A stretch of 10,375 nt of DNA from a virus (IMGVR_UViG_2690316347_000010), one strand, 5' to 3'; counted from the first letter of the stretch, positions 1 to 10,375 are shown. Program-made: numbers and translations. The notes: generated by a model from the letters alone, not told the origin.

Positions 1-142
1 CACGTTTTAATCCAGGTCGGCCTGTCCTTGTTCCGCTTAATTTATCTTCAAATATTTGTTCATATCCTGCACAAACAAGAGCGTTTCGTTGCAGGTCTGT
101 ATTCTGGTCATTTGTTGATACCCTTACATAGCCAATCAGCAC
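1..142 (-). CDS. pin: Serine DNA invertase (Pin/Gin/Hin/Cin family), N-terminal 47 codons only; partial, runs off the left window edge
   Basis: Reverse complement of 1..142 is identical to 5776..5917 and encodes MLIGYVRVSTNDQNTDLQRNALVCAGYEQIFEDKLSGTRTGRPGL, which matches the N-terminus of e14 Pin and Mu Gin-type invertases as I recall them, including the catalytic-serine region (VRVSTNDQ). GTG start at 140..142 (minus) with a GGGAG Shine-Dalgarno 7 nt upstream. Whether this copy is intact cannot be seen from the window. Confidence 0.65.
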   Translation of the reverse strand, partial: MLIGYVRVSTNDQNTDLQRNALVCAGYEQIFEDKLSGTRTGRPGLKR

Positions 143-196
143 GCTGAATCTCCCGTCCAAAAGCACAAATCATGCCATGCAGGCCAGAAACCGCCA

Positions 197-222
197 TTAT
201 CTAAAACCTCGGTTTACAGGAA
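197..222 (-). other. 26-bp invertase crossover site (gix/pix-like), pixA, inverted orientation
   Basis: Sequence ttatctaaaacctcggtttacaggaa is the exact reverse complement of the site at 5696..5721. It has two imperfect 12-bp half-sites around a central tc/ga dinucleotide and closely matches the Mu gix / e14 pix consensus as I recall it. It lies between the pin 5' end and the start of the fibre cassette, the canonical position. Confidence 0.8.
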
Positions 223-267
223 ACGGTAAACAAGGCTGGTAACGCCGTTCAGCGTTCCGGCGATAAA

Positions 268-1110
268 ATGACCGGAGAACTGAAAATTGGCACGGTGAAT
301 GCGCTGCGAATTTTCAATGATACCTTCGGTCTAATTTTCCGTCGTTCAGAAGATTTTCTTCATTTCATTCCGACGGCTGAAGGACAAGGCGAAAACGGTA
401 ATATCGGCCCATTAAGGCCATTCGCTATAAATCTGAGAACAGGTGCTATATCTGTCAGCCACGGGGCCAAAATTAAAGGAGGTCTAGCTATTGGAGCTAC
501 TGATAACGCACTGGGTGAAAACTCCATTGTTCTGGGAGATAACGACACCGGATTTAGGCAAGATGGAGATGGTATTATTAGCTTCTATTCAAATGGTTCG
601 CGCATCGGACATATTGATGAGTTAGGATTACATCTTTATAAAGATATTGAATCTAATGGCAGCAATTTTAGATTAAAAAGTAATTACCGCCACCACATTA
701 CATTCGCCAACGAAGACGGAAGAATTCGTATGTTTTTGTGGAAAGATAACGGTGGTGATGGTGTTCATATTAATAACGGTTCAGATGGTGGTGGTGATTT
801 CATTTTTAAAACAGATGGGGGATTTGCGCTGGGAAGTGGTGCGCAAGTTGCGTCTAGTGGCGATATTTATGGTTCAGTGTGGGAAAACAACTGGTTAAGC
901 ACATGGCTGCATAATCATGTCGTTCGGGATATTCGTCTTGGCAGCATTGAATATAAAAACGTATGGCGCGACTACGGCTTTGGCGATGCGTCAGGTTATG
1001 TTTTAACAGCCGCAATTAACAGCAATGCGGATGATATTGTCGACACTGTTGCCAGAAGGCCAATTCAGAAATTGATTGGGGGAATATGGTACAACGTGGG
1101 GAGTGTTTAA
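268..1110 (+). CDS. Alternative (silent) tail-fibre C-terminal variable cassette, 280-aa ORF; frame is open from 205, just inside the crossover site
   Basis: Contains the phage tail-fibre repeat [20 protein letters not shown] (compare [20 protein letters not shown] in stf) and a glycine-rich C-terminal domain. No Shine-Dalgarno before ATG 268, and an in-frame TAA at 202..204 sits inside the outer half-site, as expected for a promoterless cassette expressed only after fusion to the stf constant region. Followed immediately by a tfa gene. Confidence 0.8.
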
Positions 1111-1111
1111 G

Positions 1112-1639
1112 ATGATGCACCTGAAAAATATTAAGGCCGGGAATCCGAAAACACCGGAACAATACCAGCTAACTAAAAAAGCGGGCGTGGTATGGCTCTT
1201 TTGCGAAGATGGCAAAAACTGGTATGAGGAACAAAAGAATTTTCAGCCAGACACCATAAAAATTGCTTACGATGAGAACAACATCATCGTTGCTGTCAGT
1301 AAAGACGTTTCAACTATTAATCCTGAAGGGCTAAGCATAGTTGAAGTTCCTGATATTACGGCAAATCGTCACGCAGACAATAACGGAAAATGGATGTTTC
1401 TGGATGGTAAAGTAGTAAAGAGGGAATATACAGAACAGGAACTGCAACAACAGGCCGAATCACAAAAGGCCGCATTGCTTTCCGAAGCTGAATCAGTCAT
1501 CCAGCCGCTGGAACGCGCTGTCAGGCTGAATATGGCGACGGACGAGGAACGCACACGACTGGAAGCATGGGAACGCTACAGTGTTCTGGTCAGCCGTGTG
1601 GATACGGCAAATCCTGAATGGCCACAAAAGCCTGAATAA
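1112..1639 (+). CDS. tfa: Tail fibre assembly chaperone Tfa (ORF track starts at 1076; the start is more likely ATG 1112 or 1115, giving MMHLKNI/MHLKNI)
   Basis: N-terminus [23 protein letters not shown] and overall sequence resemble lambda Tfa / Mu U family chaperones. GGGAG Shine-Dalgarno at 1098..1102. Start lies 1 nt after the cassette stop (TAA 1108..1110). Paralogous (about half identical by eye) to the convergent 177-aa ORF. Confidence 0.88.
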
Positions 1640-1672
1640 AAATTAAGGCCCGATAGCGGGCCTTCTCTCATT
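1631..1672. terminator. Bidirectional intrinsic terminator between the convergent tfa genes
   Basis: Perfect 8-bp stem aaggcccg (1645..1652), loop atag, cgggcctt (1657..1664). On the minus strand the stem is followed by ttaatttttatt; on the plus strand by a weaker ctctcattct run. It sits exactly between the stop codons of the two tfa genes (1637..1639 and 1668..1670). Confidence 0.6.
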
Positions 1673-2201
1673 CTGGTTGTTCGGGAAACGTTACTGGCAG
1701 GCTGGAGGTGTCTGTGGATTCAACCTTCTGCGCATAGAGCATCCACTCGGTTAATTTTTGTTTATTCTCATCGGAAATGATGCCCAGCTGTAGCTGAGAG
1801 TCCCACAGCTGGGTTTTATCCCTGACGAGCTGCAGCAGGCTCTGCTTTTCATTTTCCGCTTGTTGCCTTTGCTCTTCCTCGGTATAAGTTCGCTTTATCA
1901 CCGCACCATCTTTGAACATCCAGTTGCCCGAAATATCAGCCCGGCGATTTGCTGTAATATCAGGCAACTCAACGACACTTAAACCTTCTGGATTAATTGC
2001 TGATACATCCTTGTCTATAGCAATAATTATTCCCTCAACTGTGTAAGCCAGTTTTATTGTATCCTCCTGAAAGTTTTTTAATTCCTCATGCCAATTTTTT
2101 CCATCTTCGGACCATAACCAGATAACATCAAAATTCTTTGTTAGCTGGTATTGTTCAACGGTTTTTGGATTACCTGCGACAATGTTTTTTAAATGCTGCA
2201 T
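1668..2201 (-). CDS. tfa: Tail fibre assembly chaperone Tfa, second allele (177 aa), presumed partner of the stf-resident C-terminal domain
   Basis: [23 protein letters not shown]...; Tfa/Mu U-like, convergent with the 187-aa tfa. ATG at 2199..2201 lies 2 nt after the stop of the 48-aa ORF (translational coupling). Confidence 0.88.
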
Positions 2202-2203
2202 GA

Positions 2204-2350
2204 TTATACCTGCGATACGTTATACCATGTTCCGTTAATTAACTTTTGTATTGGTCTGAATACTGCCGGATCATCACCATCGACTTCACCGATAATACCA
2301 AGCCCCGTGATTACATGGCCTGATTTTTCATACATCACGCCTTTCTTCAT
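2204..2350 (-). CDS. 48-aa ORF in frame with stf, separated from it only by TAG + ACC; likely the detached ancestral C-terminal tail of the fibre
   Basis: [48 protein letters not shown]. Its C-terminus ([17 protein letters not shown]) parallels the C-terminus of the 280-aa cassette ([18 protein letters not shown]). Below the ORF-track size cutoff; found by manual translation. Confidence 0.45.
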
Positions 2351-2353
2351 GGT

Positions 2354-4282
2354 CTAAACAACTCGTGTGCCAAGTCTGACATCTCTCACATAGCGGGAAT
2401 CAAAGTTACCGTAATCCGAGGGATTAACACGTCCCGTAATATTTATGGTTTTATTACTTTGAATGCTTCCGGAGACAAAGCGCATAACATGGACGTTATT
2501 AGCATAAACATCCAGATTACCATCGCCTTTTTGTTTAAAGCCCGTGTCATTATCACCCAATACAATCGAATTACCGCCAAGAGCACTGGATGTTCCGATA
2601 CCCAGTGCACCATTCAGTTGACCACCAGATAACGGCAGTGCACCAACATCTCCTGCTGAAGGTTTTCTGGTGGTGTAAAATTCGGACCAGTCGGCTTCAA
2701 AACCATAACCATCACGGGCTGAACGATAAAAAATACCGCCATTTTTATAATTAATCCGAAACTGAGCTGCAGGACAACTTCCTTCTCCCATATAAAAATG
2801 AATAATTAACGTTGATGCACCACTAATAGTTGCGTTATAGGCTCCGCTACTCCAGTTCCATCCAACTGCTTTATCATTCGCAACGGTGCTTCCTGTTTTC
2901 CCTAAGGCAAACGCACCAACATGACTTGCTTTTAATGTGATATCGGAGGAACCATCAAAAGCCACATTGCTTATTTTCCTGGCAGTTTTTAATTTTGCAG
3001 CTGTAGAAGCATTGCCGGATAGTTCACCAGAAAGGCCACCGCTGAATGTTTGTCGATTAGTCCAGGTATTCGCTGTACTGAGTAACGGTATTTTCTCCCC
3101 GCTTGTGCCGAGTTCTCGTAAACCGAGGTATTCGATAACGGCAGCAACGGTCGATTTCGCAAGAATATCCCGCCCGACTTTTGTCAGGGTTGCCAGGCTG
3201 GCGACATCATTCCCCGTAAAATACGGAAACTTGCCTGCCGCAGTAGTAAGTCCGGCCAGCGCCGTCAGGGTGGCATCTTTCGGTTGCTTACCCGCAAGCG
3301 CGTTAGTCATGGTGGTCGCAAAATTCGGGTCGTTGCCCAGCGCCGCAGCCAGCTCGTTCAGCGTGTTCAGTGCATCAGGTGACGAATCTACAAGGGCGGC
3401 AATCGCAGCCATAACGAAAGCCGTGCTTGCGATTTGGGTATTATTCGTTCCCTGTCGCGCAGTTGGTGTTGTTGGCGTTCCGGTCAGTGCAGGACTATTT
3501 AAGGGCGCTTTCTTGTTCGTTTCACCCATTACCGCCTTAACCGCTTTTGGCGTTGCCGCCAGTGACTCGGAAGTGCTGTTGGTCGCACTGCTGAGCTGTA
3601 CTATCCCCTTTTTCGTCGTGCTCGCATCCTCCAGCGCCACGGCGGATGCAATATCCTCTGCCCGTTTTGCTGCTGTCTCGGCGCGCGTTGCCGCGGATTC
3701 AGCAGCAACTTTGCTCTGAGATGCAGCCGTCGCACTGCCTGCCGCCTCTGATGCTTTCGTTGTTGCTGTCGTGGCACTACCTTTCGCTGCTGACGCTTGT
3801 CTGGTCGCCTCATCTTTTGAAGCAGACGCAGATGATGCCGATGACGCCGCTGAACTGGCTGACGATGCGGCTGCTGCCTTAGAGGAAGCAGCATTGTCTG
3901 CTGAAGTCTTTGCATTTGTTTCAGAGGTTTTTGCTGCAGAAGCAGACCTCGCTGCTGCAGTGGCTTGCTCAGTGGCTTTGCCAGCCTTCGTTGTGGCTGT
4001 TGAAGCGGATGATGCGGCGCTTTCTGCCGATTTTCCGGCGGCGGTGGCACTGGCTGAGGCCTGCCCGGCACTTGTTGACGCGGCACTGGCAGATAATGCA
4101 GCCGCTGTTTTTGAACCTGCCGCAGCTGAGGCGCTCTGTCCCGCTGCTGTTTCAGAAGACTTAGCGTTCGTCTCGGACGTTTTTGCCGCCTTCGCGGAAT
4201 TTCCTGCCGCCGTTGCCGAGGAAGCTGCACTACTGGCACTTGATGATGCATTCGTTTCTGAATATCGGGCCTTAATTTTTAT
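2354..4282 (-). pseudogene. stf: 5'-truncated duplicate of stf (about residues 241–875); no start codon or N-terminal domain
   Basis: 2183..4262 matches 6801..8880 (offset 4618). The open frame runs upstream to an in-frame TGA at 4283..4285, with no ATG/GTG/TTG until GTG 3640, which is why the ORF track reports only 428 aa. The 5' junction lies 17 nt after the stop of the right-hand tfa copy. Confidence 0.65.
3113..3138 (+). other. gix/pix-like crossover site inside the truncated stf copy (pixB), at the constant/variable junction
   Basis: ttctcgtaaaccgaggtattcgataa matches pixC at 22 of 26 positions with the same central GA dinucleotide. Encodes ...VIEYLGLRE... in stf. Inverted relative to pixA. 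Confidence 0.7.
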
Positions 4283-4806
4283 TCAGGCTTTTGTGGCCAT
4301 TCAGGATTTGCCGTATCCACACGGCTGACCAGAACACTGTAGCGTTCCCATGCTTCCAGTCGTGTGCGTTCCTCGTCTGTTGCCATATTCAGCCTGACAG
4401 CGCGTTCCAGCGGCTGGATGACTGATTCAGCTTCGGAAAGCAATGCGGCCTTTTGTGATTCGGCCTGTTGTTGCAGTTCCTGTTCTGTATATTCCCTCTT
4501 TACTACTTTACCATCCAGAAACATCCATTTTCCGTTATTGTCTGCGTGACGATTTGCCGTAATATCAGGAACTTCAACTATGCTTAGCCCTTCAGGATTA
4601 ATAGTTGAAACGTCTTTACTGACAGCAACGATGATGTTGTTCTCATCGTAAGCAATTTTTATGGTGTCTGGCTGAAAATTCTTTTGTTCCTCATACCAGT
4701 TTTTGCCATCTTCGCAAAAGAGCCATACCACGCCCGCTTTTTTAGTTAGCTGGTATTGTTCCGGTGTTTTCGGATTCCCGGCCTTAATATTTTTCAGGTG
4801 CATCAT
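4279..4806 (-). CDS. tfa: Tail fibre assembly chaperone Tfa (identical copy of 1112..1639)
   Basis: Protein identical to the left-hand 187-aa ORF; part of the inverted repeat R1'. Confidence 0.85.
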
Positions 4807-4807
4807 C

Positions 4808-5650
4808 TTAAACACTCCCCACGTTGTACCATATTCCCCCAATCAATTTCTGAATTGGCCTTCTGGCAACAGTGTCGACAATATCATCCGCATTGCTGTT
4901 AATTGCGGCTGTTAAAACATAACCTGACGCATCGCCAAAGCCGTAGTCGCGCCATACGTTTTTATATTCAATGCTGCCAAGACGAATATCCCGAACGACA
5001 TGATTATGCAGCCATGTGCTTAACCAGTTGTTTTCCCACACTGAACCATAAATATCGCCACTAGACGCAACTTGCGCACCACTTCCCAGCGCAAATCCCC
5101 CATCTGTTTTAAAAATGAAATCACCACCACCATCTGAACCGTTATTAATATGAACACCATCACCACCGTTATCTTTCCACAAAAACATACGAATTCTTCC
5201 GTCTTCGTTGGCGAATGTAATGTGGTGGCGGTAATTACTTTTTAATCTAAAATTGCTGCCATTAGATTCAATATCTTTATAAAGATGTAATCCTAACTCA
5301 TCAATATGTCCGATGCGCGAACCATTTGAATAGAAGCTAATAATACCATCTCCATCTTGCCTAAATCCGGTGTCGTTATCTCCCAGAACAATGGAGTTTT
5401 CACCCAGTGCGTTATCAGTAGCTCCAATAGCTAGACCTCCTTTAATTTTGGCCCCGTGGCTGACAGATATAGCACCTGTTCTCAGATTTATAGCGAATGG
5501 CCTTAATGGGCCGATATTACCGTTTTCGCCTTGTCCTTCAGCCGTCGGAATGAAATGAAGAAAATCTTCTGAACGACGGAAAATTAGACCGAAGGTATCA
5601 TTGAAAATTCGCAGCGCATTCACCGTGCCAATTTTCAGTTCTCCGGTCAT
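4808..5650 (-). CDS. Alternative tail-fibre C-terminal variable cassette (identical copy of 268..1110); frame open up to the crossover site
   Basis: Protein identical to the left-hand 280-aa ORF; lies directly downstream (minus strand) of pixC. Confidence 0.8.
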
Positions 5651-5695
5651 TTTATCGCCGGAACGCTGAACGGCGTTACCAGCCTTGTTTACCGT

Positions 5696-5721
5696 TTCCT
5701 GTAAACCGAGGTTTTAGATAA
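5696..5721 (+). other. 26-bp invertase crossover site (gix/pix-like), pixC
   Basis: ttcctgtaaaccgaggttttagataa; sits between the pin remnant and the fibre cassette. Direct orientation relative to pixB and pixD, inverted relative to pixA. Confidence 0.8.
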
Positions 5722-5775
5722 TGGCGGTTTCTGGCCTGCATGGCATGATTTGTGCTTTTGGACGGGAGATTCAGC

Positions 5776-6102
5776 GTGCTGATTGGCTATGTAAGGGTAT
5801 CAACAAATGACCAGAATACAGACCTGCAACGAAACGCTCTTGTTTGTGCAGGATATGAACAAATATTTGAAGATAAATTAAGCGGAACAAGGACAGGCCG
5901 ACCTGGATTAAAACGTGCTTTAAAGCGCCTTCAAAAAGGTGACGCACTGGTTGTCTGAAAACTGGACTGACTGGGTCACTGTATGCGGCATCTTGTCGTG
6001 CTGGTGGTGGAAGCCTAGAAAAAGTATCGGGTGTTGCTGAACCGTGTTGATACATCAACTGCACCTGATATTGAGTGGCCTACGAACCCTGTCAGGGAGT
6101 AA
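5776..6102 (+). pseudogene. pin: Pin/Gin-family serine invertase, decayed: first 60 codons intact, then in-frame TGA, TGA, TAG and TAA; 3' part divergent and cut short by the methyltransferase gene
   Basis: Translation from GTG 5776 gives MLIGYVRVSTNDQ...LQKGDALVV*KLD*LGHCMRHLVVLVVEA*..., against a remembered Pin sequence ...[29 protein letters not shown].... Stops at 5956..5958, 5968..5970, 6016..6018 and 6100..6102. The ORF track's 5752 start is an upstream in-frame GTG; homology points to 5776. Confidence 0.7.
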
Positions 6103-6156
6103 TCATTGGGATTATGCCGCAGCACGTCTTAAGCAAGAACGTGCTGCGGTTGGATG

Positions 6157-6819
6157 CTATTTTTTCCCTGAAGCGGAAAACATTACTACAGTACCTTGAA
6201 CCTTGGTTTTAACATTCTCGAAATGCTCTGAGAGTATATGTGTTAAGCCTTCTTCGGAATCTTTTGTGTTTGAAAAGATGCCTTTCTGATTGTAAATGCG
6301 CATCAGTTTTTGACCGAAGCTATTGTGCACAACTCCATCGCCAAGAATTGTGGCTCCGTATAGAGTTCCATCGTCAGTTAAGGCCTGCGCCGCATTGCGT
6401 ATTACACAGCTTTTTGTAGATATATTTCCAGGCAGGCAGTGAAGAAGGTAAAACATGGAAATGGAATCAAATTGACCATGTAACGCCGCGGGATAAGGTT
6501 CAAAAACATCATGGCTAATTTTATGTTTAATTTTTGATTCCCCAGCCCTTGTAGATGCCGCGTTCAGGCTAGCTTCGTTCAAATCCATTAAAGATATCAG
6601 ACTACTCTCAGGTACGTGAGTAAGGTAAAACCCAGTTCCAACACCAATATCCAGATGGTTGTTACCTAAATGTTCCAGAAAGTGTGGAAGAAGGTGTTCC
6701 TTTGTAGGACATCCCCATGCAAGCCGATTTGATACTCCCAAAACCCACCAGTCATAAAGCTTTAGGGTAAGTGGTGTGTAAATTTTAGCCCCATCATCTG
6801 TGTTTATTAAATGCTGCAT
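6157..6819 (-). CDS. Putative class I SAM-dependent methyltransferase (220 aa) in the position normally held by tfa
   Basis: Glycine-rich motif-I-like segment LDIGVGTGF. Shares start codon, Shine-Dalgarno context and first codons (MQHL-N) with the 177-aa tfa, then diverges. ATG lies 2 nt after the stop of the 48-aa ORF. May be related to the DLP12 prophage YbcY methyltransferase-like gene that sits among tfa remnants in E. coli K-12; this is from memory and unverified. Confidence 0.6.
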   Translation of the reverse strand: MQHLINTDDGAKIYTPLTLKLYDWWVLGVSNRLAWGCPTKEHLLPHFLEHLGNNHLDIGVGTGFYLTHVPESSLISLMDLNEASLNAASTRAGESKIKHKISHDVFEPYPAALHGQFDSISMFYLLHCLPGNISTKSCVIRNAAQALTDDGTLYGATILGDGVVHNSFGQKLMRIYNQKGIFSNTKDSEEGLTHILSEHFENVKTKVQGTVVMFSASGKK

Positions 6820-6821
6820 GA

Positions 6822-6968
6822 TTATACCTGCGATACGTTATACCATGTTCCGTTAATTAACTTTTGTATTGGTCTGAATACTGCCGGATCATCACCATCG
6901 ACTTCACCGATAATACCAAGCCCCGTGATTACATGGCCTGATTTTTCATACATCACGCCTTTCTTCAT
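6822..6968 (-). CDS. 48-aa ORF (copy of 2204..2350), in frame with stf after a single TAG
   Basis: Identical to the copy at 2204..2350; separated from stf only by TAG (6972..6974) + ACC. Confidence 0.45.
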   Translation of the reverse strand: MKKGVMYEKSGHVITGLGIIGEVDGDDPAVFRPIQKLINGTWYNVSQV

Positions 6969-6971
6969 GGT

Positions 6972-9599
6972 CTAAACAACTCGTGTGCCAAGTCTGACAT
7001 CTCTCACATAGCGGGAATCAAAGTTACCGTAATCCGAGGGATTAACACGTCCCGTAATATTTATGGTTTTATTACTTTGAATGCTTCCGGAGACAAAGCG
7101 CATAACATGGACGTTATTAGCATAAACATCCAGATTACCATCGCCTTTTTGTTTAAAGCCCGTGTCATTATCACCCAATACAATCGAATTACCGCCAAGA
7201 GCACTGGATGTTCCGATACCCAGTGCACCATTCAGTTGACCACCAGATAACGGCAGTGCACCAACATCTCCTGCTGAAGGTTTTCTGGTGGTGTAAAATT
7301 CGGACCAGTCGGCTTCAAAACCATAACCATCACGGGCTGAACGATAAAAAATACCGCCATTTTTATAATTAATCCGAAACTGAGCTGCAGGACAACTTCC
7401 TTCTCCCATATAAAAATGAATAATTAACGTTGATGCACCACTAATAGTTGCGTTATAGGCTCCGCTACTCCAGTTCCATCCAACTGCTTTATCATTCGCA
7501 ACGGTGCTTCCTGTTTTCCCTAAGGCAAACGCACCAACATGACTTGCTTTTAATGTGATATCGGAGGAACCATCAAAAGCCACATTGCTTATTTTCCTGG
7601 CAGTTTTTAATTTTGCAGCTGTAGAAGCATTGCCGGATAGTTCACCAGAAAGGCCACCGCTGAATGTTTGTCGATTAGTCCAGGTATTCGCTGTACTGAG
7701 TAACGGTATTTTCTCCCCGCTTGTGCCGAGTTCTCGTAAACCGAGGTATTCGATAACGGCAGCAACGGTCGATTTCGCAAGAATATCCCGCCCGACTTTT
7801 GTCAGGGTTGCCAGGCTGGCGACATCATTCCCCGTAAAATACGGAAACTTGCCTGCCGCAGTAGTAAGTCCGGCCAGCGCCGTCAGGGTGGCATCTTTCG
7901 GTTGCTTACCCGCAAGCGCGTTAGTCATGGTGGTCGCAAAATTCGGGTCGTTGCCCAGCGCCGCAGCCAGCTCGTTCAGCGTGTTCAGTGCATCAGGTGA
8001 CGAATCTACAAGGGCGGCAATCGCAGCCATAACGAAAGCCGTGCTTGCGATTTGGGTATTATTCGTTCCCTGTCGCGCAGTTGGTGTTGTTGGCGTTCCG
8101 GTCAGTGCAGGACTATTTAAGGGCGCTTTCTTGTTCGTTTCACCCATTACCGCCTTAACCGCTTTTGGCGTTGCCGCCAGTGACTCGGAAGTGCTGTTGG
8201 TCGCACTGCTGAGCTGTACTATCCCCTTTTTCGTCGTGCTCGCATCCTCCAGCGCCACGGCGGATGCAATATCCTCTGCCCGTTTTGCTGCTGTCTCGGC
8301 GCGCGTTGCCGCGGATTCAGCAGCAACTTTGCTCTGAGATGCAGCCGTCGCACTGCCTGCCGCCTCTGATGCTTTCGTTGTTGCTGTCGTGGCACTACCT
8401 TTCGCTGCTGACGCTTGTCTGGTCGCCTCATCTTTTGAAGCAGACGCAGATGATGCCGATGACGCCGCTGAACTGGCTGACGATGCGGCTGCTGCCTTAG
8501 AGGAAGCAGCATTGTCTGCTGAAGTCTTTGCATTTGTTTCAGAGGTTTTTGCTGCAGAAGCAGACCTCGCTGCTGCAGTGGCTTGCTCAGTGGCTTTGCC
8601 AGCCTTCGTTGTGGCTGTTGAAGCGGATGATGCGGCGCTTTCTGCCGATTTTCCGGCGGCGGTGGCACTGGCTGAGGCCTGCCCGGCACTTGTTGACGCG
8701 GCACTGGCAGATAATGCAGCCGCTGTTTTTGAACCTGCCGCAGCTGAGGCGCTCTGTCCCGCTGCTGTTTCAGAAGACTTAGCGTTCGTCTCGGACGTTT
8801 TTGCCGCCTTCGCGGAATTTCCTGCCGCCGTTGCCGAGGAAGCTGCACTACTGGCACTTGATGATGCATTCGTTTCTGAAGATTTCGCTGCCTCTTTTGA
8901 GGCCGCCGCACCCCGTGCCGAGGTGGCAGCTTCTGACGCCTTCGTGGTCGCTGTGGATGCAGAAGTGGCTGCCGATTTTTGTGATGCTGCGGCATTCGTT
9001 TCTGACGTTTTCGCGGCACTGGCGCTGGTAGCTGCCGCGCTTTTTGATGACTCTGCAGCAGCACTTTTTGCTGCTTCACGGGCCTTTGTCGATGCCGTTC
9101 CTGCGCTGGAAGACGCTGACTGAGCCGACGACGCGGCCTGTCCGGCTGACGTGCTGGCGGCACGTGCTGAGGCTGCAGCATCGGTTGCATGAGTTGCCGC
9201 CTCGCTGGCTGATTTTTTCGCGGCTGCCGTATTCTGTGCAACCGCGGAGGCGTTACGTGACACCTCTTCCACCATCTGCTCAAAGCGGCGCAGTGCCTCC
9301 GGTCGGACATCATCCTCCGTCATGGCACCGAGAAAATCATTCAGCGTACCTGGTCTGGAACCTTCATAGACGGTAATGGTCCCGGCATGTGAAGGCGGAA
9401 AACCTTCAACCAGCAGGGTGACGCTGTACTGACCATGCTCAACATCCATGCTGTAACGTCCGGCTTCATCCGGATTTTCAGAGGCCACCGTGTTCACCAC
9501 CATCGTGCTGCTGGTTCGTCTGGCCTTCAGCACAATGGTGCAGTTCTGTACTGGTTTTCCTGTGCCATCTTTAAGCACGCCAGAAATTTTTACTGTCAT
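6972..9599 (-). CDS. stf: Side tail fibre protein Stf, full length (875 aa): conserved N-terminal domain, Ala/Ser-rich repetitive shaft, C-terminal receptor-binding domain
   Basis: N-terminus MTVKISGVLKDGTGKPVQNCTIVLKARR...GQYSVTLLVEGFPPSHAGTITVYE closely matches lambda/Rac Stf as I recall it. Long SETNA/Ala-Ser repeat region; C-terminal [14 protein letters not shown] fibre repeat. Lies downstream of lom as in lambda. Confidence 0.92.
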   Translation of the reverse strand: MTVKISGVLKDGTGKPVQNCTIVLKARRTSSTMVVNTVASENPDEAGRYSMDVEHGQYSVTLLVEGFPPSHAGTITVYEGSRPGTLNDFLGAMTEDDVRPEALRRFEQMVEEVSRNASAVAQNTAAAKKSASEAATHATDAAASARAASTSAGQAASSAQSASSSAGTASTKAREAAKSAAAESSKSAAATSASAAKTSETNAAASQKSAATSASTATTKASEAATSARGAAASKEAAKSSETNASSSASSAASSATAAGNSAKAAKTSETNAKSSETAAGQSASAAAGSKTAAALSASAASTSAGQASASATAAGKSAESAASSASTATTKAGKATEQATAAARSASAAKTSETNAKTSADNAASSKAAAASSASSAASSASSASASKDEATRQASAAKGSATTATTKASEAAGSATAASQSKVAAESAATRAETAAKRAEDIASAVALEDASTTKKGIVQLSSATNSTSESLAATPKAVKAVMGETNKKAPLNSPALTGTPTTPTARQGTNNTQIASTAFVMAAIAALVDSSPDALNTLNELAAALGNDPNFATTMTNALAGKQPKDATLTALAGLTTAAGKFPYFTGNDVASLATLTKVGRDILAKSTVAAVIEYLGLRELGTSGEKIPLLSTANTWTNRQTFSGGLSGELSGNASTAAKLKTARKISNVAFDGSSDITLKASHVGAFALGKTGSTVANDKAVGWNWSSGAYNATISGASTLIIHFYMGEGSCPAAQFRINYKNGGIFYRSARDGYGFEADWSEFYTTRKPSAGDVGALPLSGGQLNGALGIGTSSALGGNSIVLGDNDTGFKQKGDGNLDVYANNVHVMRFVSGSIQSNKTINITGRVNPSDYGNFDSRYVRDVRLGTRVV
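7731..7756 (+). other. gix/pix-like crossover site inside full-length stf (pixD)
   Basis: Identical to pixB (offset 4618); 22 of 26 match to pixC with the same central dinucleotide; encodes VIEYLGLRE. Confidence 0.7.
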
Positions 9600-9610
9600 A
9601 CTTTTCCACC

Positions 9611-9646
9611 AATAAAAAAAGCCCGCAGCAGTGACGCCACGGGCTT
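9611..9646 (-). terminator. Putative intrinsic terminator downstream of lom, just upstream of the stf start
   Basis: On the minus strand: 7-bp stem aagcccg/cgggctt with a 14-nt loop, followed by a run of T (A-run 9614..9620 on the plus strand). Confidence 0.5.
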
Positions 9647-9750
9647 CAGGACAGTGTAACTTTACGTTTCCTCAAACGCAGTTCACCCCATAAGGTGGAT
9701 GAACCTGCGTATCATAACAATATTTACAGAAGATAAATCGGCGTCTGTTG

Positions 9751-10350
9751 TCAGATACGGTATCCGATACCAACAATAAATGCATCCGTTCGCCAGTCAC
9801 CACTACCGGAACCTTCATAAGCAAGGTCAATGGTCACGGATTCGGTCGGGTTAAACTGCACGCCAGCCCCCCACGCCAGAGACGTGTTGCTGTGGCGACC
9901 GTCATCACTTCCGGTCAGCACATCGTGCGTTTTCCCCTTGTTGTCAGTTACGCGGAGATAATCCCCGGAGAAAGTCGACACACGGCTGTAAGCCACACCC
10001 ACCATCGCATACGCGCTGAACCATTCATTCACGCGTACAGACGGCCCCGCCATCACGCTGAACCAGCGGTTACGCACGGAATCTTCATGCCAGCGGGTAT
10101 CGCTGTAGTGCGTTTTTTGCTCATCCTCAGCATTGGCATAACTGAAGGACGTAATCAGCCCCAGCGCGTCCGTAAACTCATAACGGTATTTCACGTTAAT
10201 CCCGTTCAGATTATCGCTGCCGGGAGCGTTCGTACGGGCATGAAGATACCCCGCGCTCAGTGTGGACTGATGTTCAGACGCCCATGCAGGCGCACCGGAT
10301 ACGGACAGACAGATGGCTGCGGACAAAATGGCTGCACAAACTTTACGCAT
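9751..10350 (-). CDS. lom: Lom outer-membrane protein (Ail/PagC/OmpX family), with signal peptide
   Basis: MRKVCAAILSAAICLSVSGAPAWA signal peptide followed by SEHQSTLSAGYLHA...; near-identical by recall to phage lambda Lom. GAGAGG Shine-Dalgarno upstream of the ATG. Lies upstream of stf as in lambda. Confidence 0.93.
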   Translation of the reverse strand: MRKVCAAILSAAICLSVSGAPAWASEHQSTLSAGYLHARTNAPGSDNLNGINVKYRYEFTDALGLITSFSYANAEDEQKTHYSDTRWHEDSVRNRWFSVMAGPSVRVNEWFSAYAMVGVAYSRVSTFSGDYLRVTDNKGKTHDVLTGSDDGRHSNTSLAWGAGVQFNPTESVTIDLAYEGSGSGDWRTDAFIVGIGYRI

Positions 10351-10375
10351 AATTACCTCTCGCTTTTCTGCAATA

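Follow-up and report, generated by a model that had tools for sequence, protein, structure and literature searches.

The fiber gene and its neighbors in the window

The window (the whole 10,375-nt stretch of DNA analyzed here, from the virus IMGVR_UViG_2690316347_000010) carries a lambdoid side tail fiber gene, stf, of 875 codons on the minus strand (9599..6972). It was recognized from the ORF call, from a match to PF08400, and from the identity of its first 621 residues with those of a 918-aa fiber that is discussed below. The PF08400 match (phage_tail_N; Pfam, E 3.7e-69) covers residues 1–134 at the N-terminus. Residues 1–621 make up the constant part of the protein, and the remainder is the variable cassette of an invertible segment. 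In the databases, the 875-aa product goes by the name “prophage tail fiber N-terminal domain-containing protein” and is assigned to Shigella sonnei.

The gene closes with NFDSRYVRDVRLGTRVV-TAG, the last residues before the stop being RDVRLGTRVV, with the amber codon at 6972..6974 on the minus strand. A single ACC codon lies between this stop and a 48-codon ORF (6968..6822, same strand), and the frame is unchanged. The first-pass annotation had claimed that one in-frame TAG separates the last 48 codons from the rest of the fiber, and this is what the minus-strand translation of 6822–7121 displays. The fiber is thus ended 50 codons early.

Other genes of the window were recognized using Pfam. 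The tail fiber assembly gene tfa (2201..1668, minus strand; 177 aa) matches PF02413 (Caudo_TAP, E 4.8e-34), and a second Caudo_TAP tail fiber assembly ORF lies at 1076..1639. An Ail/Lom protein is encoded at 10350..9751 and a SAM methyltransferase at 6819..6157. The serine invertase gene pin is represented by a remnant, a 68-codon ORF on the plus strand (5752..5958) that matches positions 2–69 of the 145 positions of the PF00239 profile and thus covers only the N-terminal portion of the Resolvase domain.

Both the stop and the short ORF occur twice. The second TAG (2354..2356, minus strand) and the second 48-codon ORF (2350..2204, minus strand) are identical in sequence to the pair described above and lie in a 2080-nt repeat (2183–4262 equals 6801–8880, with one mismatch). 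There, the 48-codon ORF is followed by its natural downstream neighbor, tfa. The earlier statement that both stf copies carry the TAG is accurate as to its presence in each, but the copies are not independent, as they represent one locus. When the window was mapped to complete S. sonnei chromosomes, all of its parts fell on one single-copy locus, with 1–4265 on one strand, 4263–6805 on the opposite strand, and 6801–10375 on the first strand again. Thus, the second TAG is a repeat view of one mutation, brought about by a duplication or a chimeric arrangement of that locus, and the duplicated layout of the window does not represent two independent copies.

This zig-zag arrangement was absent from the complete chromosomes examined, where the gene order is stf (875 codons), the 48-aa ORF, and tfa (177 aa), and the joints do not coincide with the invertase sites described below. 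The methyltransferase ORF of the window starts with MQHLIN, its first codons being derived from tfa; the real gene starts with MVKSMKTN. In megablast searches, the junction of the methyltransferase, the 48-aa ORF, and stf (6157–7400) was never matched in one piece in E. coli genomes (86% in two pieces). The methyltransferase–stf junction was considered as a gene neighborhood and rejected because it is chimeric. Draft contigs of one assembly series carry other scrambles of the same pieces.

The stop position in related fibers

At the position of the stop, a CAG (Gln) codon is found in E. coli OZ040035 (locus L003), in E. coli NCTC86 (L012), and in gene H of Yersinia phage L-413C (L002), whereas the window and all of the S. 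sonnei loci L004–L011 have TAG. The two E. coli sequences are prophages in which the Sv region is 98.9% (OZ040035) and 98.8% (NCTC86) identical to the window; for L-413C gpH, the DNA identity is 87% over the fiber end, the 48 codons, and the start of tfa. When these sequences are aligned, the bases around the stop codon are otherwise equal between the window and the relatives with CAG, and C versus T is the sole difference at the codon itself. The fibers of OZ040035, NCTC86, and L-413C are annotated as a single continuous CDS ending just before tfa. Because these nearest relatives, with CAG, read through the position, the ancestral fiber was presumably continuous and was then interrupted.

The same pattern is found at the protein level. 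We considered the 43 proteins with LGTRVV that were fetched by the database search and by a look-up of the 48-aa cluster. The residue after this motif is Q in 41 of the 43 and K in one; the one remaining protein, which ends there, is the 875-aa protein of S. sonnei. The proteins from the initial homolog search were no longer than 221 aa; the long members of the 90% cluster of the 48-aa ORF are continuous fibers of 413–1401 aa. The proposal that a single amber codon broke a continuous fiber, one that homologs read through with CAG, is thus sustained. It had been noted that homologous fibers commonly ending at GTRVV, together with a conserved separate small gene, would make this a normal two-gene arrangement. 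Among the 43 LGTRVV proteins, no fiber family of this kind was found.

The continuous C-terminal ends of the homologs also identify the 48-codon ORF (6822..6968) as a cut-off fiber end. Its start codon, ATG, corresponds to an internal Met that is conserved within the QTM(K/Q)KG of intact fibers, and the severed end has the appearance of an ORF because the intact fiber has this Met two codons past the mutated Gln. Pairing with the anti-Shine-Dalgarno sequence in the 25 nt 5′ of the ORF amounts to −2.5 kcal/mol, as compared with −8.3 kcal/mol for tfaA and −7.1 kcal/mol for lom. The ORF has no Pfam family of its own, and in S. sonnei annotations its product is named “phage tail protein.” Judged by its sequence, the 48-codon ORF is a 3′-terminal piece of stf left orphaned by the stop and not a gene in its own right.

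The TAG allele was met only in sequences labeled S. sonnei. A 61-nt probe centered on the TAG matched none of 5426 complete E. coli genomes exactly; the near matches, one or two bases off, were in six E. coli genomes in which the fibers are annotated as continuous. All of the independent S. sonnei assemblies examined have the TAG, among them the complete chromosomes CP044151, CP179990, HE616528, and UGZF01000005, and the 48-aa product occurs on at least 1000 contigs that carry the S. sonnei label. CP179990 is the genome of S. sonnei 830292 (PMC12511311). Since none of the 5426 complete E. coli genomes probed has the allele, the C-to-T change might be usable as an S. sonnei marker, subject to a survey across S. 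sonnei lineages.

The C-terminal module, the invertible segment, and the prophage

The stop falls within a conserved C-terminal fiber module of ~65 residues (DSRYVRDVRLGTRVV followed by QTM...WYNVSQV; 6822..7019, minus strand). The module starts with DSRYVRD(V/I)RLGTRVVQ, ends with WYNV(A/S)QV, and is common to fibers with several unrelated upstream regions (alignment of P0022; P0031 with P0042; P0039; and P0108 with P0111). The stop position is ~16 residues into the module and not at its edge, and the stop takes away about three quarters of it. A resemblance between the 48-aa C-terminus and the end of a 280-aa cassette elsewhere in the window had been claimed previously. The BLASTP similarity is real and spans the stop, the read-through end (VRDVRLGTRVVQTMKKG...WYNVSQV) matching the end of the cassette at 268–1110 (...WYNVGSV) at 40% over 62 aa (E 2e-9). 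Alignment to fiber S of phage Mu (PDB 5YVQ, residues 424–502 of 504; E 5.6e-16) is also unbroken across the stop, and it requires the 48 codons past the stop. A further match of the fiber is to 8JU3 (E 1.4e-54). On these alignments, the resemblance of the fiber end to both the cassette and Mu fiber S is well beyond chance.

The Mu counterpart of the module belongs to the distal fiber region that was crystallized with the chaperone Tfa (5YVQ). According to the part of PMC9608196 that cites North et al. 2019, Mu Tfa remains bound to the distal fiber and is required for its correct folding and trimerization. Given the loss of the module and the homology to Mu, the 875-aa product most likely lacks a foldable tip and cannot fold or trimerize into a working fiber tip. 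A cleavable C-terminal chaperone of the Peptidase_S74 type (e.g., as in K1F endosialidase and T5 pb1) was also considered for the fiber end. It was rejected, as Pfam searches (E up to 0.01) found no Peptidase_S74 or intramolecular chaperone domain in the read-through fiber or in the 48-aa ORF.

Within stf, a 26-bp crossover site of the Gin/Pin type (TTCTCGTAAACCGAGGTATTCGATAA; 7731..7756, and again at 3113–3138) separates the constant part from the variable part. A partner 26-bp site (TTCCTGTAAACCGAGGTTTTAGATAA; 5696..5721, with a mirror copy at 197–222) lies beside the pin remnant. The two sites, one of them within stf, are in inverted orientation and both have the core GA; they resemble the gix sequence of Mu. 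Inversion breakpoints between S. sonnei genomes coincide with the 26-bp sites. The protein switches after VIEYLGL, and the first 621 residues are identical in both orientations. The alternative, intact C-terminal cassette lies at 268..1110 on the plus strand (mirror copy 5650..4808) and includes the 280-aa ORF. This cassette is the C-terminus of the intact 918-aa fiber in S. sonnei HE616528 (L016) and has its own tfa. The tfa at 2201..1668 pairs with the amber-bearing cassette and occupies the same place as L-413C gpG and the tfa of E. coli.

Both orientations are represented among the S. sonnei loci. The 875-aa orientation, with the TAG, was found at L004, L006, L008, L019, and L020, and the 918-aa orientation at L016, L018, and L021 (HE616528 and two other assemblies). 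Because only one of the alternative C-terminal cassettes carries the stop, the amber codon affects just one of the two orientations, and the other encodes the intact 918-aa fiber. No intact serine invertase gene was found beside the segment, where there is a pin stump only. With pin truncated, the segment would depend for its inversion on an invertase provided in trans.

Other parts of the prophage are damaged as well. Exact-protein look-ups place the fiber after lambda-like tail genes (tape measure, M, L, K, I, J, and lom), in a prophage that adjoins the trp operon. Compared with E. coli, where J is intact, all of the S. sonnei loci tested have a frameshift in J near residue 494/495. The pin stump is 60–68 codons long in the S. 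sonnei loci, and pin is also annotated as incomplete in the E. coli relatives. The region is flanked or truncated by IS1 and other IS elements, and several genomes have the cassette separated from the constant part of stf, from lom, and from J. These lesions, as read from the genomes, indicate a defective and decaying prophage in which the amber codon is one lesion among several. Because the prophage carries the J frameshift, the pin truncation, and the IS insertions, the lesion in stf would be tolerated.

Origin of the stop and its alternatives

We consider it very probable (roughly 0.93) that a CAG-to-TAG nonsense mutation truncates one alternative side tail fiber end of a defective S. sonnei prophage. 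A single C-to-T transition would have turned a Gln codon (CAG), located 50 codons ahead of where stf naturally ends, into an amber codon (TAG). The last 48 codons would have been orphaned behind the stop, and the truncated product probably lacks a working fiber tip, a step that draws on homology. The mutation would then represent neutral decay in a defective prophage and not a regulatory device. A recent nonsense mutation, amber suppression or read-through, and a genuinely split C-terminal module had been offered initially as the possible readings. Only the recent nonsense mutation finds support, with the relatives differing by C versus T. The 48 codons past the stop are undamaged, which would fit a recent event and also retained use. 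Read-through, a true split gene, and a sequencing error are, even when taken together, improbable.

If the stop were leaky or suppressed, a suppressor or near-cognate tRNA-Gln would read the UAG, and long and short products would be made in a fixed, low ratio. Suppressors of the supE type and near-cognate tRNA-Gln insert Gln at UAG, and UAG followed by A is regarded in the older suppression literature as a comparatively suppressible context. Because the ancestral codon at the site is Gln, a Gln-inserting suppressor would rebuild exactly the ancestral protein, and the intact state of the 48 codons past the TAG could be seen as pointing the same way. However, a recoding device should be conserved, and the stop is not conserved outside sequences labeled S. 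sonnei, every other homolog having a sense codon at the site. A suppressor scan found no tRNA gene within the window. Moreover, selection for such a device is not to be expected in a prophage with other inactivating lesions. We thus regard a leaky stop as very unlikely.

More unlikely still is a two-gene arrangement, in which the 48-aa product would be made separately (e.g., by termination and reinitiation) and would act in trans as a chaperone-like or complementing piece. The ATG is only 3 nt past the stop (stop-ACC-ATG), and S. sonnei annotations do call the ORF a gene. However, no homolog among the 43 LGTRVV proteins is organized in this way, and the cut lies inside a conserved module and not at its edge. 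In intact fibers, the residue that would be the start Met is internal and conserved, and the weak pairing upstream of it (−2.5 kcal/mol) leaves the ORF with no Shine-Dalgarno sequence. Pfam detects no cleavable chaperone domain such as Peptidase_S74, and in fibers of this class the dedicated chaperone is the separate tfa directly downstream. There is a slim chance that the UAG is leaky through Gln insertion, or that a reinitiated 48-aa piece complements the truncated fiber; if either were true, the “dead” cassette would still supply a minor fiber species. Least probable of all is an error of sequencing or assembly in the window. Admittedly, the window follows one locus in an unusual zig-zag and has chimeric junctions, but the same TAG is in every independent S. 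sonnei assembly examined, complete chromosomes among them, and at least 1000 contigs carry the exact 48-aa product. Recurrence on this scale refutes an error.

A nonsense mutation in stf, as favored here, is an ordinary lesion. The open reading frame does not continue through the C-terminal module, being interrupted by the TAG at 6972–6974, and this is a pseudogene-type allele of the tail fiber family. Its significance is limited to little beyond annotation. In the many S. sonnei assemblies where they are called, the 875-aa fiber and its 48-aa “phage tail protein” should become a single pseudogene, flagged for its internal stop. More generally, small in-frame ORFs behind tail fiber genes can be mutational debris rather than chaperones.

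Among textbook cases, the closest is the frameshift in stf of laboratory lambda. In lambda PaPa, a viable laboratory phage, the lesion is reportedly a one-base frameshift located mid-gene. In the part of PMC9608196 that cites Hendrix and Duda 1992, it is likewise a point lesion that splits stf into two ORFs, with the working fiber lost and the rest of the gene intact. The lesion in the window differs in being a nonsense mutation, in lying 50 codons from the end, and in affecting one of two invertible cassettes of a defective prophage.

Phage Mu, with its fibers S/S′ and Tfa proteins U/U′ (5YVQ, 8JU3; North et al. 2019), has a homologous C-terminal module, and here too a Caudo_TAP gene is directly downstream. 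As in the Mu G segment, for which the G(+) and G(−) orientations are described (PMC11915804), two fiber ends with their chaperones lie between 26-bp gix-like sites, one of which is in the fiber gene. Unlike in Mu, the N-terminus here is that of a lambdoid Stf (PF08400), the invertase of the segment is truncated, and one of the ends carries an amber codon. The P2-family pair gpH/gpG of Yersinia phage L-413C has the C-terminal module and the order of fiber and tfa found here; however, gpH is continuous, with CAG at the site, and is a myovirus baseplate fiber rather than a lambdoid side fiber. Also comparable is the P-region/Pin system of e14 in E. coli K-12, a defective lambdoid prophage with an invertible fiber-end segment and an adjoining pin gene. 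Compared with e14, the locus described here has only a remnant of pin, and a methyltransferase gene lies beside it.

Layout of the window and its joints

The window (1-10375) is a zig-zag of one single-copy Shigella sonnei locus, with blocks in the order A B C A' D C E, so arranged that 1655 nt recur as an inverted repeat (1-1655 and 4263-5917) and 2080 nt as a direct repeat (2183-4262 and 6801-8880). The zig-zag junctions, at 4262/4263 and 6800-6805, fall elsewhere than the invertase sites and were not found in the complete chromosomes examined. Those sites, at 197-222, 3113-3138, 5696-5721 and 7731-7756, are crossover sites of the Gin/Pin type, each 26 bp long with GA as its core. The layout probably arose when an invertible region was misassembled; the alternative is a rare rearrangement.

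The methyltransferase ORF (6157-6819, minus strand) begins MQHLIN in the window, its first four codons coming from the tail fibre assembly gene (tfa), whereas in complete chromosomes the start is MVKSMKTN. The MQHLIN start results from the chimeric joint.

Segment orientation and the pin remnant

In window 5752-6156, the local serine invertase gene, pin, ends early, after about 60-68 codons, and is followed by a tfa scrap and a 45-codon ORF, then by the methyltransferase; E. coli relatives have the same layout, including the pin stump. Nonetheless, S. sonnei genomes show the segment in both orientations, one giving the truncated 875-aa side tail fibre (Stf) and the other the intact 918-aa fibre. 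In one case, a single 4.96-Mb contig (UGZB01000001.1) carries the prophage region at each of its two ends (loci L018 and L019), with one inversion state apiece, which suggests that the sequenced culture was a mixture of inversion states. Both states on this contig and a mixed culture in turn suggest that inversion continues in S. sonnei despite the truncated local pin; this would require a trans-acting invertase. Locus L005 has an intact 195-aa resolvase adjoining P2-like tail genes.

Other damage in the prophage

Every S. sonnei locus compared with the intact E. coli gene has a frameshift near residue 494/495 of J, which encodes the tail tip (6004-9182 in L004, and the equivalent region in L006 and L016, the latter HE616528). 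In several S. sonnei chromosomes (L013-L015, L017 and L022), an IS element (HTH_Tnp_1 / rve; at about 9241-10750) shortens the alternative cassette to 104 codons, and in these same loci the stf constant part, lom and J no longer adjoin that cassette.
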